A stretch of DNA of 64,000 nt from Schmidtea polychroa (GCA_044892525.1 CM097886.1:15004001-15068000); one strand, 5' to 3'; counted from the stretch's first letter, positions 12,133 to 62,732 are shown. Numbers and translations are program-made. The notes: a model not told the origin generated them from the sequence alone.

Positions 12133-15100
12133 TTAGTTATCAATGTAAAGGCTAGAACTAGAAATAATTCCTCTAAAAATACATTCTTGAGTTTGTTGAA
12201 ATAAAACTGCTGTTTCAAAATCTAGCATGACCTTTGCTGCAGATTCACAATTTCGAAGTAGTTCGTGAAGTCTTTGTAAACATCTAACAATGTCTCCACA
12301 TTGCGTATCTGTCACTTTTACAATGTCCGAAAACTTTGCCCCTGATGCCCACATTCGTATTGATTCTGCTAGACCGCAATTTATCTGAATTTCATGGCCA
12401 ATTATATTAAACTTTTCTTGAGATTTGTTTAGCTTAAAAATTAATAAATATTTTAAGATCAATACAAATAAGTTTTTACTTCGGCTACAATTTTAAAAAT
12501 TTCAATCATAATTTTTTGTAAAGATGGAGGGTTCTCTTTAAAATTGAATTCAGATGTTTGATTATTATTAGATTTCCCTTCAAATATTATGCATGCTAAT
12601 GATGCTGCAATGTCACATGGTAATGCATTTTGGAATATTCCCGACAGAATTATTTCCGTCACAACAACTTCATATGTTTCAATTTCACAAGCAATTCTAC
12701 CTTTTAATTTAATTGTGTCTGCTTTTGGATGTATAAAATTAAATTCCTTTAAAAAGGCTACTTTATTTCTATATTCAGGTAAAAATGCTAGGTTTTCATC
12801 TGATAGATTTTTTTGTAACTTATCAATTGTTACTGTCGTTTTTTCAATGACATCAACTTGTTTGATATGACTATTTAATGATTGGCACTTGGCACTTGGG
12901 TGAAGTAATAATGTACTCTGGGAACTTTCATAAGAAATGTATGTTTGAATAAGAGATTTCAAATGAGAATCCTAAAGAAAAAAAGATAACTGTAGGTTAA
13001 AATAACCGTTTAACTAACCTTTATATTGAGTTCTTTTTCATAGTTAGCCATTTCAATGGATTTACAAACATTGTCACAAATAGAGAGCATAGCATTTTTC
13101 ATTTCAAGATTACCCTCTATCCACTGTGACCAACTAGTCCTACGAAAAAATCTTGTCATCCAATATTTCTCTAAATTTTGTACATTGATTTTTATTTTCG
13201 TATTACATATTTTTTTAATATCATTAAGCGTGACTGTAAGAATTTTTGGATAGACATCATGTATCTACAGAAGGTTTGTGATTATTAATCAGAGTTCAAT
13301 GAAAAAATGATAACCTTTCTACGTTCCTCTTTATCATCAGGTCGTATTGGAACCAAAAGATCATCTTTTAGTGATTCATTTTCATCTTTTTTGTTTTCAT
13401 TAATCAATAGATCATATGTAAGGATTTTGATTTTGAATTTATTATTGTCCGTTGTCTGGTGAATAATACTTAATATGATTGAAGGTATCAAATATCTTCT
13501 TTGACTATCGATACCTGATACACCAGATGAATCGAGAATAACTATTCGACCAGGAATTAAAAAATTTTGAATTTCTTTTTTATTTTCGATTATTTGATTA
13601 ATATTTTTTCGTATTAATCGATACTCTATGCTTTTCTAAAAGGGTAATCAAGTCAGAGTTGATGTTCGAATTGAGAATTGGGATACCTGATGGTACAACA
13701 TCACATCCTCAATTTGACAATCATTGGTAGTGCATTGTAAACCAGTACCGTTGAACAATTTTAATTGATCTGACAATCTTTGATATTCTTGGCAGTTGTT
13801 GTCATATTTTTTCAATCTGTCAGCTTCAATAAAACTCTGTCTAATCATGTTCTAAATGATAATTGTTAAAATATTTCAAACATTTAGTCGAAAACCTGAA
13901 TATTAAATTGTTTGTTTCTATATAGACTTAAAATCATGTTATATGAAATTTTGAATTTAGATTCCAACTGTCCAACAGATCCTATTAGAGTTTTTTTCAA
14001 CTCGTCTTGGGAATATATAATTGTTCCAGGTTTGATTATAATTATAACATTTCCAATTTTGTCAAGACCTCGCCTGCCTGCTCTACCAGCCATTTGTGTA
14101 AATTCTCCTGCTAGCAGGAGTCGTTTCTTTAAACCATCGTGTTTTTGAATGCTATCAAAGACAACCGATTTAGCTGGCATATTCACTCCTACTGCAAAAG
14201 TTTCGGTTGCGAATAAAATTTTGACATACCCTTGGGAGAAAAGTATCTCTACTATCTTTAATAAATTTATTTATCAATAACCTTTTTAAAAGAAATTAAT
14301 TTGTACTTCTTTTAATATTGGAAGTAATCCTGCATGATGCATACCAAGACCTCTCATGAGCATTTCTTGCATCTCGATAACTTGAGGCAATTTTTTATCT
14401 GATGGATTGTGCATTTTTTTGTTAATTATTTCTTTGAAATACCTTTTCACATTATTTTTTTCAGCTAATATATTATTTTATTTCCATTAACTATAGTAAT
14501 AAATTTACTTTCATTTAAGAGATTAAGAGATTTCAAATCATTAGCTGTACCTTGAATTCTGTTTCGTGAAAATAGAAAACAAATTACGGGCAAGTTATCC
14601 GCTTCTTTTAATAGCTCAAACAAGGCCAACCACTGGTTATGATCTTTATTTGCAGAATTGCAAAATCCAGTTTGTTTAAGTTTCAATTCTAAATTGAATA
14701 AATGATAATACAAAAAGCAATTTATTTCATAGCTTACCGGGATTTTGATATTTAGGTTGTTTTGAAGAAGATTTCACTATTTTATTTGGTTGTTGATTTG
14801 AATTTGATGGTTTTGATTGAAATTTCTTCATAGATTTTTCATTATTCATTTTAATTGCTTCTTCGGCTTGTTCATAACCTGTTATTATTTGTTCAATATC
14901 AATATAAGTAACCACTTCTAAAATTTTACCTTTGATTAAGAAATTTTTGTTGTTATCCATCACTCGAAACAATTGATCTCTGTTGTATCGGCCAGTTCCG
15001 GTAAATAAATACATTTCTAGTGGTACCGGTCTTTTGGTGGTGCTGATAATTTGAATTTGTGTATCGCGTATTCTACCAAGCCATTCTGCAAATTCCATCG

Positions 15101-16221
15101 TGTTTGGAACTGTTGCGCTTAACATTACCAATTGAATTCTCTTCGGTAAAAGGATCATGATTTGTTCCCAAATATGACCACGGGAATCATCATTCAAATA
15201 ATGGACCTGTAGTTATTAGGTTGAAAGGAAAATGACAAATTAAATGTTTACTTCATCCATTATGACTACTTCCAAGTCTTGGATGGTGGGACAGCTATTC
15301 TTCAGCATGTTGTGAAGAATTTCTGTTGTCATAACAAGGATATATCGATTAGAACCTGTTTTTATATCGCCAGTTAGCAATCCAACATTTTCATTGCCGA
15401 AAGTAACTCTAAATTACTTAAATTAATGAAAGACAATATTATAATGTACTTAAATTCACGATATTTCTGATTTGAAAGTGCTTTAATTGGGCTAGTATAA
15501 ATAACACGAGCACCCCTGTTATGACACATGGCGATTGCATATTCGGCCACAACAGTTTTACCCGCTGACGTGTGAGCAGCCACAAATACTGATTTAGAAT
15601 CCTCCAAAGCTAGAATCGCTTTTTTTTGAAACATGTCCAACTCAAATGACCATTCCCATGCAGGATTAGGAATAAGCTCTTTAAAAGATTTACATGGCTC
15701 GTTTAAAATTACCTAAAATATGATTAACTTGCAATCTTTTAGAAAGATTAAATTCACTTGACGTGCGTAAGGTTTGTCCATATCTCTCTTGAATAGTTTT
15801 AAGTGATAGTTAGATTCCAAGTGTAACTCTAAATTTTCATTTATTTCTTTTTTTGGAATTTCATTCGAGTTCTTCAATATGAACTCATTAAAAGCTCCTG
15901 TGGGAATGCCTTGATTCATAAAATCGGGATTAGTAAGATATGGTAACTGAACAAAATTATTCGATAAATTTGTGGAATTTATTTAAAATCAATTAGAATT
16001 CTTCAATGGGTAATAAAATTTATTTAAATTAATAATTTTTTCACCTTTTCTATGATATTTGAATTGTTTATATCATTTTGTAAGAATAACGGTTGAATTT
16101 TCACTCTTGGGAATTTTAAGGACACAATGCTTGTATCTTGGAAGTTAAATTTTATCGTATTTGTATAGAATAATGACTTAATAGAGTCCAAGTTTAAGGG
16201 ATTGCAATATTGATTGAGCAT
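12133..16221 (-). CDS. SKI2: Superkiller RNA helicase SKI2/SKIV2L (DExH), multi-exon host gene
   Basis: Spliced translation gives [116 protein letters not shown] and [10 protein letters not shown]...SLY. Frame-preserving GT-AG introns: 15713-15757, 15409-15449, 15207-15251, 14879-14929, 14689-14737, 14465-14508, 14256-14306, 13852-13895, 13636-13686, 13265-13314, 12972-13018, 12433-12479. The first intron is unresolved (possibly 15947-16044). The long N-terminus and VFVAAH motif favour Ski2 over Mtr4. Confidence 0.92.
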
Positions 16222-17167
16222 AATTTCTATTTAATATATTAGCAGAAGATGAATATTTAAAATAATTTTTGAAATTAAATAGTTAACATAGAATGTCATT
16301 TGTAATATTAAATATTTAAACAAGTTAAATTTCAATAAATTCACTGAAGTCTTAAAATTCGGTACTAAATCAACCAATAGAAATAGAAAATTTTAAGGTT
16401 TAATTAAAGTCTCTAAAATAATAAACAATATTAACTATTCATGTTCGAAAATTTGTAAATGTACAGCCAAAGTTACAGATAACGAGTCTCACTCGTTGTC
16501 TATATAAAATAAATGTATTCATCATAAAATAACAGTAAAATTAAATAATTTCCATATGTTAAAAATGTTCAAATACATCGGAGCCCAAGGGGTTAACTAT
16601 ATTTTTGATGAATTTTGGTTTAAATGAAAAAATTAATTGCAAGAAATTAAGAATATTTAGATATCAGCAATTATTATATAAAAATTAGTCGCAGAGACAT
16701 TCAGTTCTAAAAAAAATTGTAAAGCAAAAACTATCCTAAAATATCCTAAAAAAATTTTTATATGCAAACTAGTTTCTTGTTAGGTGATTTAAATATGAAG
16801 AATTCTGACAAAATTATAATTAAAGGTGAAAAGCATATGAAATTAAAATTGTTACAACGTAAAATTAATGAAAGACTCAATGTTACCTATGATGTATCTG
16901 AGAATAAAAAATACTTGACTTTTTATATCAGGTCGTCCTAAAAGTGACTTTTTTTTATGGACCTGAATTTTTAAAACATATACAATTTATTGTGAACATT
17001 TAAATAAGATTTTCTTTAAAATATTATGATATGTATACTTTTCTGTTCAATTTTATTTTTCTAAAAAGTCTTAGCAGCTAGTTCTTAAGTATAATTATCT
17101 CGTTTTCTGATTATATATATTGAAGTTGGTGAACCTCTTATTTATTTAAGATTATAATGAAGAAATT

Positions 17168-17741
17168 GGTAGCCGACGAGTTTTTTGAAAACGAGTTTAT
17201 CGAAAACGAGTTTATCGAAAGCGAGTTTATCGAAAAATATTATTTTTAAGGAATTAAAAATTTTTAAATTTTTTCTTTATATGCAGAAACTTAAAATGTG
17301 TTTATAATAGCATTTGTTGCAAAAAATTCGTTTTAGGTAAAAATATATTGAAAAAGGGTTAATGCAAAAAATACTGAAATAATGAGGTTTAAGATAAAAA
17401 ACACTGAAAATTTTTCCTAAGAATAACCTGCAACGGGTTTTCCGCAGGTTTTCATTAATTGTGGGAAATTCCCTTCATTTATGCATTTTTTGATTTTGTG
17501 TTAATAAGAAAGGGTTTTTATATTTTTGAATTTAATATATATTCAGTTATCAAGTAGTGCGGTTATTAGTGATAATAATTTAAATATTTAAAAAATTAAT
17601 TTGAAAATGGATTTATTAGTGAAAAAGGAAAACAGAAAAAAAATTGATAAACTCGTCATTCGATCAATTGATCATTCGATAAACTCGCTTTCGATAAACT
17701 CGCTTTCGATAAAATCGTTTTCGATAAACTTACCGGGAATC
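17168..17741. mobile_element. MITE/foldback-like element with inverted arrays of a 15-bp subunit
   Basis: AAA(A/G)CGAGTTTATCG x3 at about 17188-17235 and its reverse complement x4-5 at about 17645-17730. Candidate 8-bp TSD AAGAAATT at 17160-17167 and 17742-17749. Non-coding. Confidence 0.55.
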
Positions 17742-17840
17742 AAGAAATTATACACAAATCCTTTAAGATGAGGGTTCATTACAATTAACAAATATAATAT
17801 ATTAAATAATAACAATTAAAATCTGTAACAACTATACTTG

Positions 17841-20360
17841 TGTTGGGCTAGATCCCGTGATAACCTAAATTTTCTATAAAATTGAACTTGCTATAAAATA
17901 ATTAAATGAAATCCTGTATTAACATATAAATTGGGGTAGTCAGCCAAATATAAAGAAAAATAAAGAATAAGAGAGAAAAATAATAGAATAAAACAAACGT
18001 TAAAAACAAAAAGCACTTAAATAAAATAAATAATAAATAAGTCGCAAACAGAAAAAAATCCAAATAGAAATAATTAGAGAGAATAAAAATAAATTTCAGA
18101 AAAACAAATTAATAAGGAAGCAAATAATAGTCAACAAAAACAATAAATAAAAACAAGGAAAGAATAAAAAACCAAGTTACAAGCAGAACGACCATCAGGA
18201 TCCAACAAAGGCAGGAGAAAATAAGAAAATTAAATTATTTAATAAATTATCAAATAAAGAGATAAATAACCTAGAAAAAAGAGTTAAAAAGAATAAAAAT
18301 AAGAAAAAAGAACTTCACACAATAACTGAATCCTGATTGGACGAAAATTACTAAATAAGGAAAGCACTTGACTGATTCCCACAATTCTAAAACTTTTCAA
18401 ACAGGTTGATCATTTGGGAACTAATTCAGCACCGATTGTATCAATTCATTTCAGTACTCGATTTTTGTATCACTGTATCGCCATAACTTTTCAGCATCGA
18501 ACAAGGACGAAAAATGTAAATTTGGTATATTGTTTAATTTTTATATACAAGTATTATCATACGTAGTTTATTTTGATAAAAATATTAATCTAATGCAAAA
18601 GTCTCTTTTCTCTTCACTGTAAAAATTATTGATTTATATTTATTAAAAATGATGTTGCGATTCAGCGATGACACCGTTCGATGATTATGTCCAAACAAGG
18701 ATGACTAGAATGTAAAAAGCCGAACAAGAATAAATGAAAAGAATAGTGGGAATTCGTGAGAACAATTTGAATTCCGCCAGAGAAGGGAAAAGATAGATAT
18801 ACAGATGCGGGAGAGAAATTCGGAAGGATATTAGAATATACCTCAACATATTGAATTAAATGCTCGATGCCAATTGGAAATAGAAGGCAAGGGACATTGA
18901 TATTGGCGGGATTTTGAGGTTGTGATTCGACAATTGAGAAAATTACTCTGAGAATTCAATGAGTTAGGAATGTGATTCATGAGCTGCGACCATTTGGGAA
19001 TGGAATTAGTTGAGGGAAGCGAGCATGAAATGTACGGTTAGACTGAACGGAAGTGCTAACGAAGGAGGTGTTAATTGTTATTGAGGTACGAAGAACTGAT
19101 AGGTATGATTTCCGTCCTGAGAGGGGTGTGATCGCTGGAATCGAGATTTTATTTATTATAATTTGTTTTATTTTAATTATTTATACATAAAATGTGATAT
19201 CACCCGATCGGGATGGTCGTTTGGGGATTGCTGACACTTGTGTCGGTAGTAACCAGATGATTCTCACAGATGGCGATGGCGGAGTCACGACATTGATTTG
19301 AGAGCGGCAAAGTTATGCATCGGAGTTGATTTTCAGCGAGCAGCAGTTCCCCATGGTAGTAATGAATTCGGGTCGGAGAATATGAGAGCCAGAGTGTTCT
19401 ATATTTCCACCATGATTACGACGATATAATTCCATTAGTACTGAGGTGACAAAACCACGATCACGCTTGATTTCTGTCGACAACACTTATTCGAATCTAC
19501 TTCTTCGCGAGAAAAATTCAACACTATCATCATTGAATGCCACTTCCTTGTACTCGACTTACTCCGTTCCGACCAATCGATTGTCCTCGACGACATGATA
19601 AAATCAACAATCGCTATATCACCACTGTGGCGGAATAAACATTGTAATCGTTATTTGCGACGATCATTTTGCATCTCCTTGAGGTAGAAATCGGTAGAGC
19701 ATCCGGTCGTCACTAGAACTATGTATAGGACTTCATTAAAATCCATCCTGTCAGTTTTGTAGGATCTCCACTTCCCACCATCGTAAATGTTTATAAACAG
19801 GAAATTTGACATCATCTAGAGAGAACCGACAAATATAAACAATTAAATTGAAATCGCGATGGATTATAGTTAATTAGTCGGAGCCGAGGATAAACATATG
19901 AAAAACGTTTACTTTGAACTAATCGCAGATCCAATCTGATTATCTATTTGTTAAGAGATCCACTACTGATGCAGTGCAAGTCAATTCGTAAACTAAATAT
20001 ATAACTTCATAAGACCGATAAGTGAATTGACCGAATTAGTCGATGTCAAGTTCATAATTAAAAATTCTTAGTAATATAAATCGGGAGAAGAAAAGATAGT
20101 TCTAAAGATAAATGTTATAAGGTAATGATTATACAGTATCAAGCGGGAGGAACCGCTCGAAATCGTGTTATCCGCCACTCATTTTGCTTAACTTTGTATT
20201 AATTAATTCTCGGCCAAGTATTGATTAGGAAAATGATTCTCGCTATGAGTGAATTCTATTGTCATGGGTACACATAAGGGAGATCATTGTCAAGTCATAC
20301 TGGATGTTTAGGAGAAAGTCCATCATGGAACAAATAACATCACCCCCTAAGCGCCCAACA
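17841..20360 (+). mobile_element. TGTTGGGC...GCCCAACA insertion E1 (2520 bp), solo-LTR-like or non-autonomous
   Basis: 8-bp terminal inverted repeat TGTTGGGC and perfect 4-bp TSD CTTG (17837-17840 and 20361-20364). A-rich tract at about 17950-18330, then GC-richer decayed-ORF-like sequence. Confidence 0.75.
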
Positions 20361-23229: not shown

Positions 23230-24219
23230 TGTTGAGGATACCTAAATAATAATTTATAAAGAAATAAATAAAATTACCTGGGGGAAGATCACCATGACAA
23301 ACGGGACGATCTATAGAAACTCAGAAAAGAAAACGGAAGTGAAAAGAAATTAAAAATGAGAAAGAGAAAGGAAATAAAAGTTATGAAACAGGAAAATAAA
23401 AATCAAGGTCAGTACTAATTAATTAGTACAAAAAGGAAAAGGAATTTTGAAATCGGGAATAAGGAAAACAACAATATCTTTATCTCGACAGCTTACCAGT
23501 GATAATATTATTGATGGGAGAAGGCGGTAGAACAAAAAAGGGAAAGGGAAAAACAACTTGACAGCTGTCAGAGATAAAAATGGGACAGTCGAGGAAAGCA
23601 GGAGAAGGAAAATGGAAAAACACTTGATTATCTGGAGTGCCACAAGAGAAGCGAACTATATAAGGGAAAACTTGTGAACATGAAAAGACAACAAAATTAG
23701 AAGAAAAATTAGAGACAAAGTGACGCGAAATTGAAAACGATTTGGAAGACGATTTGAGAGATAAAATTATTGGAGAAAATTAGACGTTGGACGAAACGTT
23801 GTCGGACAAACGATTGCCAAAATAATTGTAAGGAAATAATTGTGGAAAATAATTATTGGAAAAGAATTGAAGAAAGAATTAGTTGAAAAATAAAACGAAA
23901 GAAGTTATTTGATTATTTGAATAAAGTTGTGAAGGAAGTCGAAGAAAACAACCAGCTCAAAATTCCAGTTTATAAACCAATCAGTAATTTGTAGTCTTTT
24001 AATCCGGTGTTATACACAAGTGCGATTCCTCACCGAGTGTTGTAATAAGCATTGTATAGTCACCAAGCAGAGTGTTGAATCTATTGCCAGTGTAAAGAGA
24101 AAGATTATTTGTGATTATCAATAAAGATTTCTGTTGTCAAGTGTTATTTGTGAATCGTATAAAGACACGCTTGGAGTCAGAGTAACATTAAATTTTATCA
24201 CCAACTCAATAACCCAACA
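23230..24219 (+). mobile_element. TGTTG...CCCAACA insertion E5 (990 bp), probable solo LTR
   Basis: Ends TGTTGAGG / ACCCAACA with 4-bp TSD GTTT (23226-23229 and 24220-24223). A/G-rich 5' part, AATAAA near 23918 and 24121, no ORF. Confidence 0.72.
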
Positions 24220-30340: not shown

Positions 30341-31064
30341 TTCATTCCTTATTTTTTGCATCTAAAAATTGAAGCTCTTTCATAATCAGAAAGTGACTTT
30401 CTAAGTGACATAACCCTTAGTTTAAAATTTTAATATATAATAACAGATTTTAAAAATGGCGGGATCAAATTTTACTATTAATTAATAAATATTACATTTA
30501 TTTTGTCCGAGCGATTTTGATTAAGCTGTTGGCGTATGTGGGGAAAATAGAAAGTATACATACATAGTTATCATACACGTCAAGCATCATGATTCCGCTC
30601 AGACCATTCCCGCACACACTCCAGATGATCATTCACAAATTCCCACGTATGAGCCCGTGGTGATGTTCCACGTTGGTGCTGCTCACACGGGTTGGAAAGA
30701 GTTAGCAGGTGAGCCCCTGTCTTAGGACTACTCCTAACCCTTTCTCGGGTCGGGTTCCATGGCGCCCTAGAAGGTCTTACCCGGTTCTTTGCACAAAAAT
30801 TCAGTCCGACCCTGGTCCAAGGGGACGACATTTAAGCCTCTACTACACTTTCAGGATCCTGCTCTTCCGCAATTCAACCATGGCAATTCATACATTCAAT
30901 TAGCACAATCAAAAAAAAATAGAACAGTTGTATTATATCGAAAACATCAAGATACATCCATCATTACGTAAATACATATAAAACATTAAGGATTAGACAC
31001 AAGATGATATCAATTTTTAAGTTTATTCGTAATGGCAGAGAATCGAGACCCGAGAAGAAGTTTG

Positions 31065-31826
31065 CTACGAGAATGCTTCTCCTTCTGCAAGCATCTCGTC
31101 GATGTCAACCGGCAATCGTTGGTTGGAAATGTATTTAATGCCTTCTGCCGGAACGATGCGAAAGATTTCCTTTGTGGGAATTGAGTGACTAGACGATATC
31201 TCTTTTATGGTGGATTTGGCTGCAGATAGTGACGCTTCGAGTGCAGCCATTGCCTCTCGGCGTTTCTGATTTTTCTCGGCCCGGGTTGGCCGTTTTCGTT
31301 TGCGAGATGGAGGAGGGTTGTCCGTGTTCGAGGTGACGACAGGAGCCACTAGGATTGGAGCTAAGATCGGATCAGTAGGTCCACCCACCAAAGGTTGATA
31401 ACCAGATAATGATGGAGCCGGGACGGGTGGTAGATATGAACCATGTCCTTGGCAGTTTGTGGTGGTCGATTGAGATACCTGATGATGAAGTGGGAAGACA
31501 TTTGTATTCTCCAAGACGGGGAATTCCCGTACCCGCTTGGCCAGTTCCGCCTCCGTATAAACCTTGTGGAGGGCTTCGGACTGGGCTTTAATAGTCAATC
31601 GTTGGTTTCGGCTCTCCTCTAGGAGGCTATCTCTGCAGTGTTCTAGTCGGAGGATCTTACTCCGCTCCTCCTTCATTTGTGGCGGGGAGAACCACGTACC
31701 CTCATAGAGATCGATTCTCTTCTTCAATGCCCCGATGTATAGGTGAAGTTGTGCTATGTCGGCATTTTTATCCGCACACGAGAAGCACGGTCGAAGTTCC
31801 TTAGTGTTGCTGGAAGATGTCGTCAT
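31065..31826 (-). CDS. Orphan 253-aa protein (CxxC, coiled coil, Pro-rich linker, basic NLS-like KRKR motif) inside E2
   Basis: Uninterrupted ORF, visibly more GC-rich than its flanks, with AATAAA about 35 nt after the stop. A homologous decayed copy lies at 61557-61910. Confidence 0.7.
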   Translation of the reverse strand: MTTSSSNTKELRPCFSCADKNADIAQLHLYIGALKKRIDLYEGTWFSPPQMKEERSKILRLEHCRDSLLEESRNQRLTIKAQSEALHKVYTEAELAKRVREFPVLENTNVFPLHHQVSQSTTTNCQGHGSYLPPVPAPSLSGYQPLVGGPTDPILAPILVAPVVTSNTDNPPPSRKRKRPTRAEKNQKRREAMAALEASLSAAKSTIKEISSSHSIPTKEIFRIVPAEGIKYISNQRLPVDIDEMLAEGEAFS

Positions 31827-34274
31827 TCTAGAAAATCAATCGGTTTTATATCGAGTCAGGACATTTATTTTCGAATGATATAGTCGAGTTTAGGACACAA
31901 GCTGGCCATCTTATCCATCATCTCACCCAATGACAATCCACAGATCTCATCATCCATCTCCGTTTACTGGCATTCCACTACAAACATTCAAATTCACTCA
32001 TACAATCGTTTACGAAAAAGGAACGGGGATTTGATTAAGAAACGCCTCTGATCTAGGTCCACTTCCTTATCATGTCGTTATTCTCTAATTTTTTCATTAC
32101 TGTCTCAGCTTTCTATCGATGTAATGACTTCAAAACGAGACTAAAATCCCCGACAACTTATGGCTAATTATATGTTAATCTACGCTAGGGGAATTATAAT
32201 AAGAAAATTTAGTTAGAAAACTGAATATTAAATTAAAATTTCCAGTGATTTAAATTATACGCGGAATTTGTCGTCATGGAAACATTTATTTAGTTGTACG
32301 TTCTGATTGGATAGCTAGAGGTGTCAATCTTCCGATCGCAATTATAATTGTGCATTAGCTGTTATTTTCGAGCAACTGCCTATACTATTGGAAGAGATTA
32401 TCGCTTGTCTAGTAATTTGGAGAAAAATTCCAATTCCTCACCCTCGTCCATTGAAAATTTATTTCTGAAGAAAATCCATGTACTCACGTGATCATTACAT
32501 CACTAGCATTTCCTACCAAGCCGTAGATTCATTTGTACACCGCGCTACGTGGGAGTGACAGAAGTGTGTGTGTGTGTATACTATGACAGAATAGAATGGA
32601 TTACATAATCGACTTTCCGGCAAGAAGTAGTAGACAAATTGGGCATCCGATTTATCAGCTCAAACAACCGACGATGTAGCAGAGTGCGGAGTAAGTTGAC
32701 TTTGTTATCAAATTTCATTTCATGATGTTGACTCAGGATAATGATTATTAGCTGGTTCACTCGACTATTCCTACCCACAGAGCGATATATCATCAATTTA
32801 ATTTAACATTATCCGATGACCCTGTTGGCTGACGGTAACTGGCTATTGCAGATCAATTGAATACGGTTATCGTTGACGATAATTTCCCTCGACCTCATAG
32901 TAAGTATTCCTAAATTTTTATCGTACCGTGTTTACCTACCCGTCAGAGAGATTATTCCCTGCTGGTGACTGTGGCTCAAAGACAGAAATTCGACATTCAA
33001 GAGTACATCGATGGTGGATGTAACTGCTAACAACTGGGTGACAGATTTATAAGAAAAGAAAATCGAATCCCGCAGGAGGTGAAGACATTATACAATATCT
33101 CTGACTGATTCGTGAAATGGTGATGGTAATGCCTCCGAAAAATGCTCTAACGACGACCTGACTGTCATAAGGATCCTCTTTGCCTGCGTGGATTACTATT
33201 AGCTCAATGTCAATATCAAATGTCTATCTCTGTCTAAATTCTTGGCCATTTCTAAAATTCGTTGACACAGATTTTTTTGGAATTTTCGCCATAAGAATGG
33301 AACTAATCGCAGAACGATCGCACTCGGTGGAAATAATTTTACTCCGCCAACGCATCTCAACTACTAAGTCTCTTCACCCCTGATGACACACCCAAGAAGG
33401 CATTCATTTCTGCCGCCATTCTTGCACCGTCATGAGGGACCAATCGACTTATTCAACTTCAATATCTTTAGCATCATGTATGATTATAAAGCAATAAAAT
33501 CATGAACAAATAAATAAATATAAAAATTCTTACCCGGCAACCATATCATCTGGCATCCAAGTATGAGTTTTGTTTTTCATTTTAACCATCAAATTAGCAA
33601 ACATAAATAATTAATAAACCAAAATAAGTCACCATACCTAGAGCTTCGAAAAATTGGAACGAATTGAATTTTAAAACTGATCTCGTAATAAACTAGTCAC
33701 TAGTCGTTCGGTAACTTCGTGTAAATGTAAGTTCTGGAATCTCTGAAGTAATGCTTGTGAGTATGGTTCTGTGGAATATCTGTGATCTGTAATTGGTAAT
33801 CTGTAATCGTGAAAAATCAAAGTGGGTTAACTTCTTAACAATTTTACCTGTAATCGTGAAAAATCAAAGTGGGTGTCTTCTAATTTTTCACGTTACATAT
33901 ATAGTATTTTTCGTCCAATAAGGACGCAGCTTGTTTGTAATTTTCTATTTATTATTATTTTTTTATGTTTTTATTATAATGTATTGGGTTTTAATAACTT
34001 AACTCATTTCTTATTATTATTTTATTTATTTTTCTTATTTTTCTTATTTTTTCTCTTATTTTCTGCGGACTTATTGTTATTTTAATGTAATATAATTTTT
34101 GTTTTAATTAAACTTAGAAATGGTTTTATTTTTTATTTATTTCTTTAACTTTCCCGTTTATTGGTATAAGTATACAATAGGGGGGCCACTTTTTTATAAA
34201 TAAAGATATATAGATATAAATATTTAAATATATTAAAGTAATTAAAACATAGTTACGTTTATATTTACTTGGTA

Positions 34275-35177
34275 TTACACACCACCAAAATCATATTTTT
34301 CACGTATTTGATTGATTAATACATCAAACGCACGCTCATTTCGACAAAATCTTCTTCTCCACATGAATTCATCTAAGTACGAAGGAATGAAGCTACATCT
34401 AGTCCCAAACATATACTTAAATTTCCTTTTACATAAGGCCCACGAACCTTCTATTCCATTGGTGTTAACGCCGGTTAGGGGATCAATAAAGTGTTCCGAG
34501 TGATTCACCCACTGGTGTACATACGGTCCCAGTCTAGCTAAAGGTGTAGATGCATTTGGGTTTCGTCGGGGACCACCAGTATAGGTCGAGAATTCATCGG
34601 TCCAAATAGTCGTTCCCGGAAGTACAACACGCGAAAAAATCGGAAAAATTTCTTTTTGGGTCCTATTATCAACGAATTCAAAATGTACATTCTTCGTAGT
34701 ATAGTCTAGAATTCCGAAAACCCACCCACTGCGGGCATTCCGTCTCGGTTCGCCACGATTATGCAGCAAATTCATTAACTTGGACTCATCCGCTTGCACT
34801 ATATGATCTACTCCACCAAACAATAAAGGTTGAGATACTAACTTCCAACTGGCAATATCTCTGAAATACTGGTACCATTGAATTATAGTTTTTTTGGAAA
34901 TATCGGTGAAAAGCTGAACTTGTTTAATGGAGCATTCCGCGCCCCAAAAATACATCAATAGAAAAAGCTCACGAATATGCAGTTTTGAATTACAAAAAAA
35001 ACTCCCGTTTGTAATTGTTTGCTTGATTCGATGAGGATTTACGCGTGCCCGACTCCGGCAAACAAATATATATTCATTCACGACTTTGGAATCTTTAACT
35101 AGTTCCATAATACGCCCGCATCTCGCGCAGGTTGGATCGGCTCGTAACAAACCTACACTTTGGCAATGTCTTATCAA
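34275..35177 (-). CDS. Merlin/IS1595-family DDE transposase, at least 300 aa
   Basis: N-terminal CxxC, GSFF..SKL, GGVDHIVQADES, WVFGI, GTTIWTDE, VNHSEHFIDP.TGVNTNGIEGSW, SYLDEFMWRR. No stops; the true start may lie in or next to the N gap. Confidence 0.9.
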   Translation of the reverse strand: MIRHCQSVGLLRADPTCARCGRIMELVKDSKVVNEYIFVCRSRARVNPHRIKQTITNGSFFCNSKLHIRELFLLMYFWGAECSIKQVQLFTDISKKTIIQWYQYFRDIASWKLVSQPLLFGGVDHIVQADESKLMNLLHNRGEPRRNARSGWVFGILDYTTKNVHFEFVDNRTQKEIFPIFSRVVLPGTTIWTDEFSTYTGGPRRNPNASTPLARLGPYVHQWVNHSEHFIDPLTGVNTNGIEGSWALCKRKFKYMFGTRCSFIPSYLDEFMWRRRFCRNERAFDVLINQIREKYDFGGV

Positions 35178-35213
35178 AGACAGTGTGTCTCTTGAAAGTT
35201 CATATATTTGCTT

Positions 35214-35612
35214 NNNNNNNNNNNNNNNNNNNNNNNNNNNNNNNNNNNNNNNNNNNNNNNNNNNNNNNNNNNNNNNNNNNNNNNNNNNNNNNNNNNNNNN
35301 NNNNNNNNNNNNNNNNNNNNNNNNNNNNNNNNNNNNNNNNNNNNNNNNNNNNNNNNNNNNNNNNNNNACATCTTTTAAATAAGGATATNNNNNNNNNNNN
35401 NNNNNNNNNNNNNNNNNNNNNNNNNNNNNNNNNNNNNNNNNNNNNNNNNNNNNNNNNNNNNNNNNNNNNNNNNNNNNNNNNNNNNNNNNNNNNNNNNNNN
35501 NNNNNNNNNNNNNNNNNNNNNNNNNNNNNNNNNNNNNNNNNNNNNNNNNNNNNNNNNNNNNNNNNNNNNNNNNNNNNNNNNNNNNNNNNNNNNNNNNNNN
35601 NNNNNNNNNNNN
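35214..35612. other. Assembly gaps (N runs 35214-35367 and 35389-35612)
   Basis: N characters flanking a 21-bp island, in the 5' non-coding part of the Merlin. Confidence 1.
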
Positions 35613-36855
35613 GGCCCCCCTATTGTATACTTATACCCGTTTATTTATTTCACTTTTTTGTTCATTCTATTTTTATTTTATCCGCTGTGTGTCTTAAATC
35701 GTTTTATTTCTAAATCTTAGGGGTTTATTGGGTTTTATTTGGTTGGGTTACTTATTCTTATTCTTTTGTTAGTATTTTACTGTTCCTTCCTATTTACTAA
35801 TGAGATATGATGGTAATTTATATATTTCTTATTTTCATTTATTTTTCGAGGTTTACCTTTCTATTCGTTCCAGTTTTCTCCTCTCTGAAATTTAGCCCAA
35901 CAAAGCTTTTAAAATTGCAAAATTTTGCCAATATTGCATGTGACACAGTCGATTAACCTTAAAAAATATATTAAAACAGAATATTAATTCAAATTCTTTG
36001 CTTTTTCCTCAGCTGTTTTAAAAATTTGATCCTTCTTATTTTGTTGAATATCAGTTAAGGTTTCTGATAAAGATGAATTTATTTATTGTGGGAAACCGAT
36101 TTTTTTGAACAAAATTCACATTTTATAATAAAATTTGAAATATTTTTCAAAAAAATGCGCCCCTTAGCCTAAGGTGAATGCCATACTTGCCACCCTCGTT
36201 CCTAGGTTGTATATATACACACATATATATAATAAATATAATTTTATTTATTAAAAAGAGGTTGAAGACTATAAATCAGTAATATATCGATGTTTTTTAT
36301 ATTCACGAATTTTCGGCACTGTCTTTTTCAAGGGAATTTTATATTACTTTATCAAAAAAGTGTAGGTACATTGTTGAGTTGTAATTATTGTTCGGCAGGA
36401 TAGAACTATAAATCTAACTTTACTAGTTCTTGATCAGAATAATAACTCAACACATTAACTTTTTATTATTACTACAAATTCCGATTGTTCAAATTTTCAC
36501 CGATACAAATGATCCTTTGCTTGATAGTATGGGAAGGTAACTCTAAGGGAAACCACCTCAAGTAATGAAACTAATCTGATTAAATCAAATAGTAATCTCG
36601 GTCTTTTTCTTTTCAAAACCTCTACTTTGGCTTTTCATTATTTGCTCGGTTTTTTCTTCGACCAAAATGGTAGTTTGACCAAGTTTTTGGTTCATTTTGT
36701 ACAAGGCTCTTCTAGCGCCAGTTACTTTAAAATTGAACGAATCGCTCAAGATTAGCTAAATGTTTCTTCAAATTTAATTTATTTTGGTCTTAGTTTGACA
36801 AGCTGACATTTCGTTTGTCAAGCTTCGGGATCTATACCATTTTCGTTTTAAAATG

Positions 36856-44791: not shown

Positions 44792-47397
44792 CAGGGATGG
44801 CAATTACATGGCACGCGTGCCAAACTTGGCACGCAGACAAAAAACTTCTGGCACTCTAAGAAATTTAAAAAAAGAAGTAGAAAAAATTCTTATTATAAAA
44901 TAATTACTGCTTTTTAAAAAAAAATTTGGACCCAAAATTTTAATCAACGGCTTTGAATTGAATTCTATATTTTTTTCTCTAGTTGGCTTTGCGTTATTAA
45001 ATAACGCAATTAATTATTAAATTTAGTTTATTTTAGCACTTTGATAAAAACCTATTTGCCAAAATAACGGTTATTTTGTACATACGTATATGGTTGTGTT
45101 ATAATTCTTGTATATTCTTACATCAGTTTTTAGTTTTGTTTTAACTTGTGCAGTTCAATAAAATTTGTGTTTAATTTTAAATAAAATTTATTTTTTGCTG
45201 AATTAAAATGGTACCAAAAAAACCAAAACTACAAGATATTCGTAGCTTTGTACTCTCTTGGACTGCTGATTACGGTTTTGTTAAACATGGAGATAAAAGT
45301 CGGTGCGGTCTGTGCTCTGAAATTATTGTATGTCGAAAGTCTTCTATTAAGCGACATTTTGAAACCAACCATAAAGAAATTGCCGAAAAAAATATTGAAG
45401 AAAGAAAAGAACTAATTTCTCAACGATTAAAGATAGCTGAAAATCAATCGAATTCATTATCAAAATTTGTAAAAACCAACAGCAATGTTACAGAAGCTAG
45501 TTTTGAAATTTCTTATTTGATTGCTAAGCAATCAAAACCATTTTCTGATGGAGAGTTTGTAAAAACAGTTATGTTAAAAGCGGCCGAAAGTTTGTTTCAA
45601 GATTTTAATAATAAAGAAAAGATTATTCAAAGAATTCGAGAAGTCCAGCTAAGCCGAAATTCAGTTAAAGATAGAATTTTAAAAATAAGTGCGAATATTT
45701 CTGATCAACTTTACAACGATGTTAATAGCTGTGACTACATTTCAATTTACCTCGATGAATCAACAGATATTAAGTCATCTGCCCGATTAGCAATCATTGC
45801 ACGTTATCCGAAAGATAATGAAATGCACGAAGAACTTTTAAAATTAGCAAATATCCCAGAAAGAACAAGAGGTAGTGATATTTGTGAAGTTGTATTCAAT
45901 GAATTAAACAAACTTAAAATAAATATTAAAAAAATCATTTCTGTAACGACAGATGGAGCTCCTAATATGACTGGACCAGAGATAGGTTTTGTTAATTTAT
46001 TTCAAAACCTAGTTGGTCATCCAATAATAGGCTTTCATTGCATTATTCATCAGCAAGTTCTTTGTGCAAAATTCGGAACTACCGATTTCAAAGAAATATC
46101 AAAACAAGTTAATAAAATCATAAATTTTGTAGTTGCACGCGACATGCATAAAAGACAATTTAAAAAACTTTTAAATGATATGGATTGCGAATACGATACT
46201 CTCTTAATGTGCAATAGTGTACGTTGGCTAAGTCGAGCGACATCCTTAGAACGATTTGTGAATTGCTTGGAAGAAATTCGACTTTTTTTACACGAATTCG
46301 ACAGGGATCGTTTTAAAGAATTATATGATACAGAATGGTTAACAAAATTAATGTTTTTACCGACGTAACATTACATTTAAACGTTCTTAATAAAAAATTG
46401 CAAGGACGAGGAAAAACAATTGAAGTTATGTTTGGATTGATAAAGGGGTTTGAAATTAAATTAGATATTTTTGCTAGAGATATCGCATCTGGAAAACATA
46501 ATAATTTTCCGAAACTTAAAAGTTTTTTAAATGAATCTACAATTTTCAAAAAAACTAATTGGAATTTTAATTACGAATTTTCTAAAGTTCTTGAAACTAT
46601 AAAAGAACAATTTTCAAATCGATTTAAAGATTTTAAAAGAATTGATAGGCTGTTGAAAATTGTAAATTATCCGGACTTATTCGATATACAGGATTTCGAT
46701 AACAACCTTATTAATTGGATGAAATTAGAAAATTTAGAAATGCAGACAGTAGATTTGCAATCTAATCCTATTTGGACACAAAAATTTGTGAATATGCGAA
46801 AAAATATAGAAGAATTGGAATATCATCGATTGTCACAGGATGGAGAGTCGGAATGCCGCATTGAAAACTTGATATTGGAAGTGTGGAATAGTATGCCAGA
46901 AGCATTTGCTTCTGTAAAAAAATTAGCAATCGCAATGTTAACCATTTTCGCATCCACTTATTACTGTGAGTCTTTTTTCTGTACTTAATCATGTACTATC
47001 AAAGACAAGAAACAGATTAACAGAAGAAGACTCAGCAGCTTGTATTACCTTACAATCGACAACATACCATCCTGATATTAAAAACCTTGCAAGTAATATG
47101 AAGCAAAAAACTTCTAACAAAATTTAAGAATTTTTTTATTAAATTTATTATTAAACTTTATAATTTTTTTTACTATTTCTTTATATTGAATAAATATTAT
47201 CACATGAACTCAAATATTGAAATTTATTTCTGTTTTCTTGTGAATAAAAAAATGAATAAAAAAATGAATAAAAAAATGAATAAAAAATGTATATATAGGT
47301 ACATATAACAAATAAAAGTTACGAGGGCACGCGAAAAAAATTGAATTTAAATTTAGTTTATTTTGGCACTTTGATAAAAACCTATTTGCCATCCCTG
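44792..47397 (+). mobile_element. Full-length hAT (SPIN/GTF2IRD2-like), 2606 bp
   Basis: 12-bp TIRs CAGGGATGGCAA and perfect 8-bp TSD CTTTATAG (44784-44791 and 47398-47405). Confidence 0.95.
45208..47120 (+). pseudogene. GTF2IRD2/SPIN-like hAT transposase with two frameshifts
   Basis: C..C...KRHFETNH, KPFSDGEFVK, LDESTDI, TTDGAPNM, HCIIHQQVLC, VRWLSR and STYYCESFF. Frameshifts near 46360 (MFLPT vs (F)TDVT) and near 46980. Confidence 0.9.
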
Positions 47398-51752: not shown

Positions 51753-53870
51753 CAGTGGCGTAACTAGGGTCTGGCGCCCGGGGCGAGTCAAAATTTTTCG
51801 CCCCCAACCTCAATTAATTAGATTTTTTAAATAAAGAAAATACTAATAGTTGGTTGTGATTACTGAAGATATCAGAAAGACATAATAACTTCATATAAAA
51901 TTAAATATACATTAGAGAAAAATTTCTTTTAAATTTTATTATATTTCATCTTATTTATATTACAAGTTAATTCTCCTTGATTTTACTGATGCAAATTTAT
52001 CAATTACTTCATCAAAATTAAATTTTTCCGTTGCCTTACGTTCTATACTTAATAATGCGAGATCACTCAGCCTATCTTGTCCCATTAATGCTCTTAAATA
52101 AGATAAAATTAATTTAAGCTTACTGAATGAACGTTCACAACTGGCAATCGAGATTCCAATTGTAAGTAGAATTTGAAGAGACGTTCTCAAACTGGGGAAA
52201 ATATCATCTCCATATGACACAATAAATTTTAGAAGATCCAATGAATTTGTTGGTTGTGTATCTTTTCCGCTCATCAAAAGCATTCTGCAATCTATAATGT
52301 CATTAAACAACTCTTCACCACTAACATCAGTATTATAGAATTTACTAAAATATGTGCAACTTTCTTTTAAGCCCTCAACACTCTCATTACGTAAAAGATT
52401 TTTAACATATAATAAAAATCCAAATTTTGAATTTAAATTGTTAAGAGCTTCAAATCGACTGTTCATTTCTTGTATTAATATTTCAATGATGCTTTTTAAC
52501 ACACTATCAGAAGCTTGTTCTCCTATCCTTTTTTTACTCGACGAATTCTTCTCATAATTTGAATGTCCCATTCTGTACATTTTTCTTGAGCAAATTCTAT
52601 AGCAGCAGTACATAAATTTTTACGCGTTTCAATTAAAGTTTCTTTAAGTCCATCTAAATCAAGCGCTGCGTCAAAAAATTCATTTTCGGATCTTGTAATC
52701 TTTTTTGAACTCGATCAATTTTGTTCAAAACATTATGCCAAAAATGAATCAAACCAAGAAAATTAAAATTTAAAAAATTTTGTAAAATGATTTGGGCTTC
52801 GCTTCTTGATTCTGTTGTTTGATTGGAGTCTTCAGAAAGTTCTTCAAGAAAATCAATGATTTCATTGAGTTGCAAAAAAATTACTTTTACAGCTTCAGAT
52901 CTTGCACTCCATGTTGTGGTTGTTTCACATTTCCAAGATAATTGTACAGCATCTTTTAATTTTTGTAGTCGTAAAGTAGAACGTGAAAAAAAGCAAAAAT
53001 TTTCTCAACAGAGCCAAAAAATGTCATTACAATTGGATCAGTTGCAGCTGAATGTAGTCCAGCCAGATTAAGGCTATGATTGTCGCAATTTATAAATAAA
53101 GCGCGATGATTCAAATAACAAATTCTCTTTTGAAGACCAGGAATACGCCCTTTCATAACTGCTGCGTTATCGTAGCATTGAGAACGACAATTTGAGATAT
53201 CTAAATTATCCAATTTTAATGAATTAATAATTGTCATTTCAAGTGTTTCAGCATCTTTTGCTTTTAGTTCTATAAATCCAAGAAATGTTTCTTTAATTTC
53301 AACATTTTATTTTCAAAATCAATGTCGATATAACGAATTACTTTTGCTAATTGTTCACGATGTTGTAAATCAGGAGTGGAATCAAAGAGCATCCCAAAAT
53401 ATTTATTTTTTCTAATATTGTTGAGCAAATCATTCTTCACTGTCATCGCAAGTAATGAAATCAATTCATTTTGAATAGCTGGTGATAAATAAGATGGAGA
53501 TCCAAGATTCTTGCGACAATTCTGTAAATGCGATGATAAAACTATTTCATATTTAGACAATAATTCAACCAGACTGAAAAAATTTCCTTAATTGTGCATG
53601 TTTGCATCACTTAATGTTTCAATATGCCCTCGTAATCCTAAATTTTGAAATGCCAGATATTGAATGCACGATAAAAAGCGTTTTAATATATCTCTCAATC
53701 GATTTCGTTCTGACTGAATTTGTTGCTCTAAATTCACATCAATTACAACACATTCATTTAAGCTTCATTCAGTTTCCTAAGGCTAATGTATGTATATATC
53801 AGTTATTAGCAAAGGCGTCTTTAGAAATTTGTCGCCCCTGTGCTATAAACTATAATGCGCCCCTAAAAAC
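51753..53870 (-). mobile_element. Degenerate ZMYM1/Tip100-like hAT, only the 3' terminus recognised
   Basis: Terminus CAGTGGCGTAACTAG at 51753. Fragments LGLRGH, LFDSTPD, SQCYDNAAVMKG, CDNHSLNL, SETTTTWSA and SIASCERSFSKLKLI...RLSDLALLSIE. Confidence 0.88.
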
Positions 53871-58920: not shown

Positions 58921-58950
58921 TATATTTATATATATATATATATATATATA
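58921..58950. repeat. (AT)n microsatellite
   Basis: About 11 perfect TA units. Confidence 0.75.
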
Positions 58951-59916: not shown

Positions 59917-60957
59917 TGTTAGGTTCGATGGGTATGTCTTCGAACTAACACAAAAATGTTCTATCTGACTCCAAGTAAATAATTTATGCGCGTAGGTAAT
60001 CAAATAAATAAATAAGAGATATGTTTCAAATATTTATTTTCAATTAAAAGTTAGTTACACGTTTAAATATGTATAAATATAGTTACACCACGCTGCTTTC
60101 TCTAAGTATAGAAAACGGTTATTCAAACCGCCCTGAAGAGTGTTACTAAGTATCAAGGCTGGCCCTAAATGCGCCAACAGCCCGATATAGGTGAAAGGAA
60201 AAGAGAACGGGACAATCACCAAAATTTACGCTATAGAATTAACCCAGAAATTGGTTAATTCTTTTTAATAAATATTACTAACGAGACAACACAAAATTCG
60301 TGCTGACGTCAGGATATCCCCTAAATTTATTTAAAGCAAATAAATCCTTTATAAATACCTTTACAATTATCCAAATATTAATAATTAAAATATTGATAAA
60401 ACTAACTGATATTCCTTAAATAGTACTGAAGAGAGTTTTAATAATTATTCCACAAATTAACTATCGATTTGATATTTCCAATAATTATCACGATTTCTGT
60501 AATCCAACTGTCTATGTGCACAGAAATAAATTCCCAAAAATTTACGAAACTAATTTTCTTTCAATCGATACGATTCTTATCACTTGACGAAACTTGATCG
60601 TTACTATAAATATAATTGGTTCCTAATTTTAGTCACTGCGGTTTTTTCTCACTCCTATCTTCGTCCCTTCATCTAATTTTTTATCTGCTATTTATACCAA
60701 TTTATTTTACGTAATTCTATTAATAGTAATTGTTTAATTACTATTTTTTTTTATATATTTCAAATAATTCCTACAATTCTATTTTTAGTAATTATTTATT
60801 ACTAATTATGTTTTAATTTTAATTTTAGTATTTAATTTCTATTTTTGGTAATTTTAAAATACTATTTTTATTTTAATCCTAATTTTGGTAATTAATTATT
60901 ATTTTATTTATTATCTAATTTCGAACGTTTATTTCCGGTTCCTACTGAACCCCAACA
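59917..60957 (-). mobile_element. TGTT...AACA insertion E3 (1041 bp)
   Basis: Ends TGTTAGGTTC / GAACCCCAACA and perfect TSD AGTC (59913-59916 and 60958-60961). A-rich 5' tract on the minus strand. Removing it restores the hAT frame HASRLIAKIRSVV. Confidence 0.85.
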
Positions 60958-61267: not shown

Positions 61268-62732
61268 TGGTGGGTTACTGATGATCAAGTATTTTGCTTT
61301 TTAGTGCTGTTTCCAGCGTAACCCAAGATACAGCATTGTCTTACCACTTGATACCTGTTGAGTAATTAACGTTGGTACTGTATCAAGCGGGTGAGCACTA
61401 TAATTGTCGGGTACTCTGGTCCACGGACTACCGTTAGAAGGTATGTGTCCGATTTAATCAGGTCCCTTACTGTAATTGTTTTCCCAAACACCCTTATACA
61501 AGCTTTCATCAAATGATCATAAGTCACAGTAGCACATACGTTAATTTATTAAAACCCTAAGGTGCTGGAGTAGATTTTGTTTTTTCTGGCTTCTCTTGTT
61601 CTGCCAACCAGGCTCTCTTCAATTTTTCGCGGGTGTTTCGCCCTAACCGTTTGCGCTTCGGTTTAATTGGTGGATATATTTCGGCCAGCTCTATGTGCAA
61701 TAAGCGAATCTGAGCTGCGGTAGTCTCATTGATGAATTTCTGGTTCAACTTGACTTCCATCGTGCGGATCTGCATCTTTAGCGCACGGATTTCCCTTTGA
61801 TCCTGCTTTGTCTGGGTCTGGAGTTGTAAGATCTGGGCCGTCCGTTTTTTCATCTCAGCCTGACTATATCAAGTACTTTCGAATTCGCGGCACTTTCCTT
61901 TGAGTATAGCATTGAGAATAAAAAAAATTATTGAGTTAAACATAGATTATAACACATAAAACAAATATAAATCAAAGAACGCTTACTATTATTCCGAAGT
62001 TTTTCAGGTAGGTTTTACAGCAAAATAAAATTTGGCATAAAGTGTTTTTGTGATTAAAATGCGTTGGTATATATACCTATTTTTGTATGTGCAATTACAC
62101 GTGTATGTGTTGATGTATTAAAACAAACTCGAATTCTTTTTTAGAATTTTCTATTTTCAAATTTTGATGATTTTAATGGCAATTTTAGTGCCATAATTTT
62201 TATTTTTAAATTTTTATTCTTTAATTATTTTTTGTTAAATTTTCCTCCACGATGGATTTGGGCAATTCCAGAACATTCTACATTAAATTAAAGTTACTTA
62301 TTATTTTAATATTGTTTTGTCTAAATTCTTTTTTCAAATTTTTATTTCTAAAACTAATTTATTTATTTTTATTAAATTTTGCTGATTTACATGGCTTTTA
62401 TGATGAATGTCACCATTTTTATGAACTGTTCTGGAATTTCATCTAGAATTTAGTATTTTACTATCTTTCGGTGTCATTGGAGTCTGTTTTTTGTAATTTT
62501 ATGTTTCTCTGTCGTATTTGAGTTAGTTTTCTTGCAATACTTCTTGCATTTGTGAGATTTTATTTAATTTCAGTGTTTTTATTTTCTGTTGTGTTTTCTT
62601 AATTAATATTGTTTATTTGGTGTTTTGATTTTTATATTTAGCTAAACTTATTGCTAAGCATGTGTGCTATGTACCAACACATTTCGGTCACAAAATAAAG
62701 TTTTGGGTCTAGAAATCAGTTCTAGCCCAACA
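61268..62732 (-). mobile_element. TG(G/T)TGGG...CCCAACA insertion E4 (1465 bp)
   Basis: Ends TGGTGGGTTA / TAGCCCAACA and TSD CTTG/CTCG (61264-61267 and 62733-62736). Removing it restores the hAT frame EAHDTSSYLQELV. Its first 12 nt (TGTTGGGCTAGA, minus strand) are identical to E1. Confidence 0.85.
61557..61910 (-). pseudogene. Decayed, internally shortened homologue of the E2 orphan ORF
   Basis: LKGKCREFEST*YSQAEMKKRTAQILQL aligns without gaps to E2 LKKRIDLYEGTWFSPPQMKEERSKILRL. The KRKR..R motif is shared, and AATAAA follows the stop. Confidence 0.65.

Follow-up and report, generated by a model that had tools for sequence, protein, structure and literature searches.

A giant Burro-type retroelement of Schmidtea polychroa carries a conserved gene within its long terminal repeat that may encode a regulator of the element

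E2 is an insertion of 5,376 bp within a 64,000-bp stretch of the Schmidtea polychroa genome (GCA_044892525.1 CM097886.1:15004001-15068000; hereafter the window), whose GC content is ~30%. It is almost certainly a solo long terminal repeat (LTR) of a Burro-type Ty3/Gypsy element of ~30 kb, and the open reading frame (ORF) inside it is, with the same near certainty, a real gene. The full reading, in which this conserved gene is likely spliced within the LTR and likely encodes a nuclear activator of element expression, is about an even bet. The insertion, its target-site duplication (TSD) and its gene have the following positions.

30527..35902, minus strand (element sense): E2, almost certainly a solo LTR of a ~30-kb Burro-type Ty3/Gypsy element, recognized from its ends, siblings and paired copies
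30523-30526 and 35903-35906: TSD of E2, AAGC
31065..31826, minus strand: LTR-internal gene of 253 amino acids, with a CxxC motif, helical domain, linker, basic helix and acidic tail

Siblings of the insertions in the window were sought in the organism's own genome (781 Mb, four large contigs). Close siblings of E2 (90-96% identical) are 4.07-4.17 kb long and have the same ends. Both ends were found for 23 E2-type LTRs from 27 chosen loci, and 22 of the 23 are 4.0-4.2 kb long. Twelve of these adjoin an element interior; the other 11, which have no internal flank, are all bordered by an exact duplication of 4 bp, the length given in the first-pass annotation, and in no case is it longer. The same annotation gave E2 a length of ~3.9 kb, which is indeed what is left once a nested transposon is subtracted.

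Paired direct copies of the LTR flank a gag-env-pol interior, which bears out the earlier suggestion that very large LTR retroelements left such insertions behind as solo LTRs, E2 being a giant LTR that contains a protein gene. Four apparent LTR pairs were examined. Two are true elements, one is a duplicated solo LTR, and one is a solo LTR split by another insertion. A 22-kb copy at G000:C1:23.14-23.16 Mb has two 4,124-bp LTRs with seven differences between them and a 13.8-kb interior, and the whole element is flanked by a CAAG TSD. Another copy has a 21.6-kb interior and measures ~29.8 kb including LTRs, and further pairs are spaced 26-27 kb apart. Because the element reads on the minus strand of the window, the TGTTGGG end and the A-rich tract behind it are the unique 3' region (U3) of the LTR.

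The interior contains, by Pfam matches, a RING frame, gag, CCHC knuckles, a weak Bcl-2 match (E = 0.049), a fusion glycoprotein, protease (PR), reverse transcriptase (RT), RNase H (RH), integrase (IN) and ankyrins, followed by a RING-TRAF-MATH frame and three unnamed frames. The order PR-RT-RH-IN occurs in one frame of 2,400 amino acids, and the env-like fusion domain (PF24664, E = 1e-72) lies upstream of the protease within one frame. No BIR domain was found in the frames scanned with Pfam, and each of the four E2-type interiors inspected is broken or has deletions.

Of the paired copies, primer-binding site and polypurine tract that had been proposed as a check, the first two are present. 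The primer-binding site matches this genome's tRNA-Pro(TGG) plus CCA at 18 of 18 positions and lies 7-8 nt behind the 5' LTR. A pattern search found 104 LTR-primer-site junctions genome-wide. No purine run precedes the 3' LTR; in all 12 junctions listed, a conserved GC-rich self-complementary tract ending in GGAGTGATT lies there.

Several side observations concern these elements. The pentamer TGATT flanks both LTR-interior junctions, and the primer-site spacer is unusually long. One copy, whose LTRs are 99.8% identical, is a young deletion derivative in which ~7.8 kb of the gag-env-protease region is missing. Three copies of the ORF occur at ~26.4-kb spacing at G000:C1:72.65-72.70 Mb, and likewise at C2:107.32-107.37 Mb; at the former locus, the middle LTR is joined to interior sequence on both sides, so these are tandem elements with common LTRs. 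A tandem tRNA-Pro(TGG) array with a 475-bp unit is present at G000:C1:130.90-130.95 Mb, and the tRNA 3' motif is matched 2,164 times genome-wide. The insertion that splits a solo LTR is ~15 kb long, with inverted ends starting AGTAGT and many ORFs, and presumably resembles Polinton/Maverick elements.

The element is of the Burro kind by its architecture. As described in a review (PMC6431247), the Burro/GYPSM1 elements of planarians are ~30 kb long and present in many copies, with an interior of up to 25 kb, and share with the E2 family a gag with CCHC knuckles, an env-like fusion domain that separates gag from the protease, the PR-RT-RH-IN order, a weak Bcl-2 match, and ankyrin, RING and MATH/TRAF domains. 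Burro1 has a BIR domain and one unbroken polyprotein of ~4,900 amino acids (PMC6431247). In contrast, MATH is found here in a RING-TRAF-MATH frame downstream of pol, BIR was not detected in the frames scanned, and the LTR contains a gene, whereas the text of the review names none within Burro LTRs.

The ORF at 31826-31065, present as the first-pass annotation had reported it, is conserved as a gene under strong purifying selection. A protein search of the genome gave 7,018 candidates; the 148 that were scored are 80-100% identical and nearly all ~253 codons long, and because the best candidates were scored first, intact copies are favoured in this set. Selection was measured on 23 distinct intact frames from 30 loci, after exclusion of seven (two with stops, one with a frameshift, four with shifted starts). 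Among 192 pairs with a synonymous distance (dS) above 0.2, median dS is 1.07, the median nonsynonymous distance (dN) is 0.077, and median dN/dS is 0.07, with a maximum of 0.17. Comparison with one divergent copy gives 28, 11 and 116 differences at codon positions 1, 2 and 3. Private and shared variants do not differ (P=0.35), so selection before insertion is not separable from selection after it.

The gene is present in at least 798 copies, counted as exact genome-wide matches to a 30-nt coding motif for which the control gave 0. Set against the 104 LTR-primer-site junctions, this number places roughly three quarters of the copies outside full elements, although the two patterns differ in tolerance. 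Across subfamilies, U3, the ORF and the last 300 bases of the LTR align, and most of the LTR middle does not. Related frames that are 34-46% identical occur in other LTR families, several of them ~1.1-1.35 kb before a CCAACA end, and overall, LTRs of other families, among them siblings of two further insertions in the window, E1 and E4, have relatives of the gene in this position at 34-100% identity. The protein tree, whose bootstraps are unsettled, serves just to show that the LTR-gene family is diverse.

In a HMMER search of 1.84 billion proteins there were 13 hits, and 11 of them have the N-terminal domain of the LTR gene. The other two are repetitive proteins that match a different stretch and were dropped as chance. 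At least nine of the 11 homologues are gene models in which the domain is joined to host domains unrelated to it (transporter, CRAL-TRIO, subtilase, actin, phosphatase). Such fusions would be expected if gene models take up an LTR exon because its acceptor is strong, and they represent either mis-prediction or true exonisation of solo LTRs. A word-indexed search with the single protein retrieved none among 700 candidates; an alignment-based search gave four hits among 8,000 scored, three already known and one a new protein. The phage collection contained no match, and the database searches found no host homologue.

The LTR also contains predicted signals for transcription and splicing, and two RNA structures.

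33896..33919, minus strand: CCAAT box (ATTGG) and TATA box, a predicted promoter that closes the A-rich U3
33843..33897, minus strand: inverted repeat or 5' hairpin, ending at predicted splice donor 1 (GT 33847-33846)
33637-33636, minus strand: second predicted donor GT
33525..33566, minus strand: 3' arm of a long-range RNA helix, whose 5' arm and loop were lost in E2 through a ~233-bp deletion
33363..33440, minus strand: conserved covarying RNA stem-loop within the predicted intron
31828..31845, minus strand: predicted splice acceptor (pyrimidine tract and AG), one base before the ATG
30527..30830, minus strand: conserved 3' block resembling a unique 5' region (U5), with an invariant GTAAG donor (GT 30780-30779)

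The CCAAT motif is found in 22 and the TATA box in 21 of the 23 LTRs, near LTR position 500, and a splice donor occurs at LTR positions 500-900 in 22 of 23. The start-site inverted repeat has a folding z of -3 or below in 8 of 10 subfamily copies. A YAG lies at most 3 nt from the start codon in 23 of 25 copies, which are related, vs 184 of 1,244 other ATGs (15%); of the 27 loci given for this count, one was without the motif and one without the Met. The U5 donor is invariant in all 10 subfamily copies. These signals suggest that the gene is probably spliced from the LTR promoter.

The long-range helix has compensatory changes at 14 of 30 pairs in 15 copies, a count reached in 0 of 500 shuffles, and slid controls gave at most five. 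For the stem-loop, 7 of 22 pairs are compensatory in 16 distinct copies; its pair count is not above shuffles (89/500), and its cells and score are. Both structures were derived from the same alignments that were used for counting compensatory pairs. An Rfam scan of a sibling LTR gave no matches.

One further splice signal was seen in the element interior. The RING frame between the primer site and gag (7541-8035 of the extract of C1:72.65-72.70 Mb) has a TTTAG acceptor 2 nt before its ATG, and this frame may be reachable from the U5 donor.

The encoded protein has predicted long helices at residues 16-101 and 182-213, an N-terminal CxxC, a low-confidence linker and a basic helix at about residues 174-213. 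Two motifs stand out in its C-terminal part.

31257..31307, minus strand: basic motif (residues 174-190) that divergent families also conserve and that is rich in arginine in the database homologues
31068..31115, minus strand: acidic-hydrophobic C-terminal motif (DIDEML / FDLDE type), a predicted activation motif

The acidic-hydrophobic tail is present in 17 of 20 frames, and in the homologues a run of arginines replaces the basic motif. A homodimer prediction with zinc scored lower than its control. Judged from sequence features, the protein is somewhat better than an even prospect as a nuclear regulator of its own element; within this, transcriptional activation would be a tentative role that falls short of even, and RNA export an unlikely one.

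In the reading that we prefer, transcription would start just behind the TATA box, and a short noncoding exon would be spliced over ~2.2 kb to the AG at the ATG. The mRNA might end in a U-rich stretch behind the stop codon. The short spliced mRNA would yield the protein, and unspliced read-through RNA would serve as the genome. The protein would oligomerise through its helical domain, the basic helix might bind the LTR inverted repeat at the start site, as DNA or nascent RNA, and the acidic tail might recruit the transcription machinery, as Tas or Tat does in complex retroviruses. On this view, every intact solo LTR would be a gene complete in itself and able to act in trans.

Features of this scheme have counterparts in retroviruses. 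In common with the regulators Tas (PMC7828637), Tat and Rev/Rex/Rem (PMC2661877 for Rem), the gene has a predicted spliced mRNA, a basic or arginine-rich motif, a start-site hairpin, structured RNA in an intron and an acidic tail. However, there is no significant similarity of sequence or fold to these proteins, the host element of the E2 gene is Ty3/Gypsy, and the retroviral genes are internal or overlap with the 3' LTR, whereas the E2 gene lies within the LTR. The sag gene of mouse mammary tumour virus (MMTV) is likewise a coding gene in an LTR under purifying selection, and is preserved mostly in solo LTRs (PMC4667437); Sag is a superantigen of a betaretrovirus, encoded mostly, not wholly, in U3. 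The E2 gene, in contrast, is contained entirely in the LTR and follows a predicted promoter and intron, its product is predicted to be nuclear, and it has no sequence link to sag. The extra ORFs of the plant Ty3/Gypsy elements Grande, RIRE2 and Retand are conserved and of unknown origin, some of their products are nuclear, and they are proposed regulators like retroviral accessory proteins (PMC7264820). Regulatory roles are also proposed for internal extra ORFs of plant elements in PMC11963269. The plant ORFs are internal, mostly antisense between pol and the 3' LTR, whereas the E2 gene is sense and inside the LTR.

Several results weigh against the activator reading. AATAAA is not conserved behind the stop codon (8 of 23 copies within 150 nt), and so marks neither the 3' end of the mRNA nor the extent of the R region. 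Contigs from four presumed-RNA runs were placed on a sibling LTR at 80% likeness; among the joints listed (15 of 33), none connects exon 1 to the acceptor. Contigs of three of the four runs cover parts of the ORF, with no clear GT..AG joint. It may be that selection operates in replicating elements alone and that solo copies are silent. The structure model is weak (pLDDT 63, pTM 0.29), and the window protein matches no Pfam family. No solved relative was found, and the PDB sequence matches are to actin and come from the host-derived tail of a homologue. Foldseek searches of the pdb and viral sets gave nothing at E <= 0.001, and the Atlas leads are all below 0.9. The likeness of the tail to acidic activators, and of the protein to Tat and Tas, is our own presumption. 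Finally, structured RNA in the predicted intron would fit a Rev-like role equally well.

In such a Rev/Rex/Rem-like role, which is predicted from sequence and which we consider unlikely, the protein would bind structured RNA of the LTR intron, and unspliced genomic RNA would leave the nucleus or be translated. The two covarying helices lie between donor and acceptor, and the conserved LTR length suggests that the intron is kept in the copied RNA. Against this reading stand the derivation of both helices from the alignments on which they were counted, the pair count of the smaller one and the empty Rfam scan. The homologues have an arginine-rich motif; Rem likewise has one, is the product of a spliced mRNA and works through a structured element (PMC2661877). 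One homologue (1 of the 13 hits) matches Pfam REV with E 0.0013 and 19.1 bits, but the match is below the cut-off of 22 and composition-based, and the window protein gives none. No nuclear export signal was identified in the protein, and its acidic tail suits activation better.

Alternately, the protein might be a host-directed accessory factor, for anti-silencing or cell survival, like the RING, Bcl-2-like and TRAF cargo of the element or like MMTV Sag; this is similarly doubtful. The element carries further host-directed domains, as Burro elements do (PMC6431247), and Burro1 is reported to protect stem cells through an IAP (PMC13465017). In one variant, such a factor may be made from the 3' LTR through a long splice from the U5 donor, and not from each LTR. 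The invariance of that donor favours this variant, as does MMTV sag, which is mostly in U3 and has several promoters (PMC4667437). Yet a conserved promoter and donor are present upstream in the same LTR, the basic and acidic modules point to work linked to nucleic acids, and the searches described above found no host homologue.

Besides E1, E2 and E4, the window contains two further insertions, E3 and E5, that the first-pass annotation had assigned to the same group.

17841..20360, plus strand: E1, solo LTR of a related large-LTR family, with a CCAAT motif as in E2 and a long-range helix; the ORF present in its siblings is deleted
23230..24219, plus strand: E5, solo LTR of 0.99 kb, with an E3-type primer site behind rare siblings
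59917..60957, minus strand: E3, solo LTR of 1,041 bp, whose parent is a 14,794-bp element with an ATTT duplication
61268..62732, minus strand: E4, solo LTR with internal shortening; LTRs of its family reach ~6.1 kb
61560..61868, minus strand: short, distant LTR-gene member in E4, a 103-amino-acid frame with an in-frame stop just 5' of 61868

The ends and flanks of these insertions are as the annotation gave them. TG...CA ends are flanked by exact 4-bp duplications in E1 (CTTG), E5 (GTTT), E2 (AAGC) and E3 (AGTC), and by inexact ones in E4 (CTTG/CTCG), whose end is TGGTGG. An exact 4-bp TSD is also present in eight of nine E5 siblings. Within the window alone, a loose motif paired TG..CA ends with TSDs in 3 of 155 pairs, against a null mean of 1.2 (P=0.13), no excess over chance; the motif missed E5, and the flanks of E4 are inexact. 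The proof of the boundaries is therefore the genomic siblings. As to the common polarity that had been described, an A-rich tract follows the TGTTG end (48-58% A in the first 400 nt), and the later rise in GC occurs in four of the five and not in E5. This polarity is the ordinary orientation from U3, the A-rich promoter region, to U5.

The view that the five form one family failed, because they have only short, mostly A-rich patches of DNA in common (at best 68% identity over 146 nt, between E1 and E2). They are instead solo LTRs of related Ty3/Gypsy families. A family without enzymes is likewise not supported, because the enzymes sit in the interior that was lost by recombination. A non-autonomous family of Ginger/TDD-like DNA transposons with cargo, which the TG...CA ends and 4-bp TSDs would suit, is extremely improbable, since the same sequences are direct repeats around gag-pol interiors with RT and a primer site, and their terminal inverted repeats (TIRs) are just 7-10 bp long. 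Ginger/TDD elements have an integrase-like transposase without RT between TIRs, and the RT-containing interiors between direct repeats rule out this assignment for E2 and E3.

E1, E2 and E4 are a group of large LTRs with a common ORF family. The LTR gene is present in four of five fetched regions with E1 siblings and lost in E1 itself. The E4 frame is 61-65% identical to sibling frames in which the GTW motif of the family is retained and which hit the family profile at E 5e-9 to 4e-7; its own direct match to the LTR-gene family is weak (E 0.09; probability 4.7%). For neither E1 nor E4 was a copy seen attached to an interior, and they are assigned through the common gene family, promoter or ends. 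A search for the E4 interior through the recurring 3'-LTR flank gave a duplicated region alone among the 100 of 251 matches listed. Two loci 32 kb apart were considered as the LTR pair of one E4 element and rejected.

In the parent of E3 ("mini-Burro"), a single frame contains gag, an env-like fusion protein between gag and PR, PR, RT, RH and IN, and two unnamed frames follow downstream. The RT-RH-IN region of this parent is 30-47% identical to that of the E2 family. An E3-type primer site follows 3 of 25 pattern matches to E5, one of them with gag-like remains, and E5 siblings are mostly solo. No LTR gene was found in E3 or E5.

The earlier statement that no insertion contains a transposase is contradicted by a transposon nested in E2.

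34163-35637, minus strand: Merlin transposon (IS1595-like DDE), 1,475 bp, with 25-bp TIRs and the 8-bp TSD CGTTTATT
34278-35210, minus strand: readable frame of the Merlin transposase; the rest of the frame lies under N, and both N runs of the window are inside this insert

The frame has an IS1595/ISXO2-like DDE domain (E = 1.3e-13). Merlin elements have TIRs starting with GG and TSDs of 8-9 bp, and the nested insert agrees with this rule. It accounts for the extra length of E2 over its siblings and sits in U3, ~240 bases upstream of the CCAAT box; in addition, ~233 bp of sibling sequence is deleted in E2 at 33566. E2 would have become solo by LTR-LTR recombination, as is established for LTR elements, followed by the deletion and the Merlin insertion in either order.

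Other features of the window are as follows.

1071-3246 (minus) and 7063-9230 (plus): decayed gypsy-like gag/pol pieces, with a Pfam protease at 7968-8522
4706-6799 (plus), 45202-46988 (plus), 51960-53587 (minus) and 57250-63146 (minus): frames or pieces resembling hAT transposases; E3 and E4 apparently lie among pieces of one hAT-like element
12133-15712 (minus): multi-exon host gene with DExH helicase motifs, which we take to be SKI2-like
17166-17743: element adjoining E1 that resembles a miniature inverted-repeat transposable element, with 15-bp subterminal repeats
55075-56847: inverted arms of ~190 bp around a fragment like a non-LTR retrotransposon

LTRs are ordinarily noncoding, and MMTV sag is the classic exception (PMC4667437). 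The literature searched contains no description of a gene in Burro LTRs, and no LTR gene is mentioned in the passages concerned of PMC11410931, PMC8532177 and PMC13238120; the primary Burro papers and Repbase lie outside the scope of that search, and a prior description is possible. The giant element behind E2 is of a known type, and the gene inside its LTR is real and may not have been described before. The gene explains chimeric gene models that fuse its exon to unrelated host genes, and it provides an alignable marker for LTR evolution.

Self-encoded regulators of expression are a hallmark of complex retroviruses, and for LTR retrotransposons they are so far no more than a proposal (PMC7264820). 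A conserved gene lying entirely within the LTR of Burro-type elements would give direct access to the way in which the RNA of a 30-kb, intron-bearing retroelement is produced and exported, and hundreds of solo LTRs would become candidate genes. Burro1 is reported to matter for planarian stem cells and regeneration (PMC13465017). It is conceivable, although we would not expect it, that a circuit in the style of complex retroviruses is contained wholly within a Ty3/Gypsy LTR, with a promoter, an intron with response elements and a Tat-, Tas- or Rev-like gene. The hundreds of solo LTRs would in that case be no dead scars but self-contained regulator genes, with the capacity to drive giant elements that bear env in trans and to influence the transcriptome of the host.

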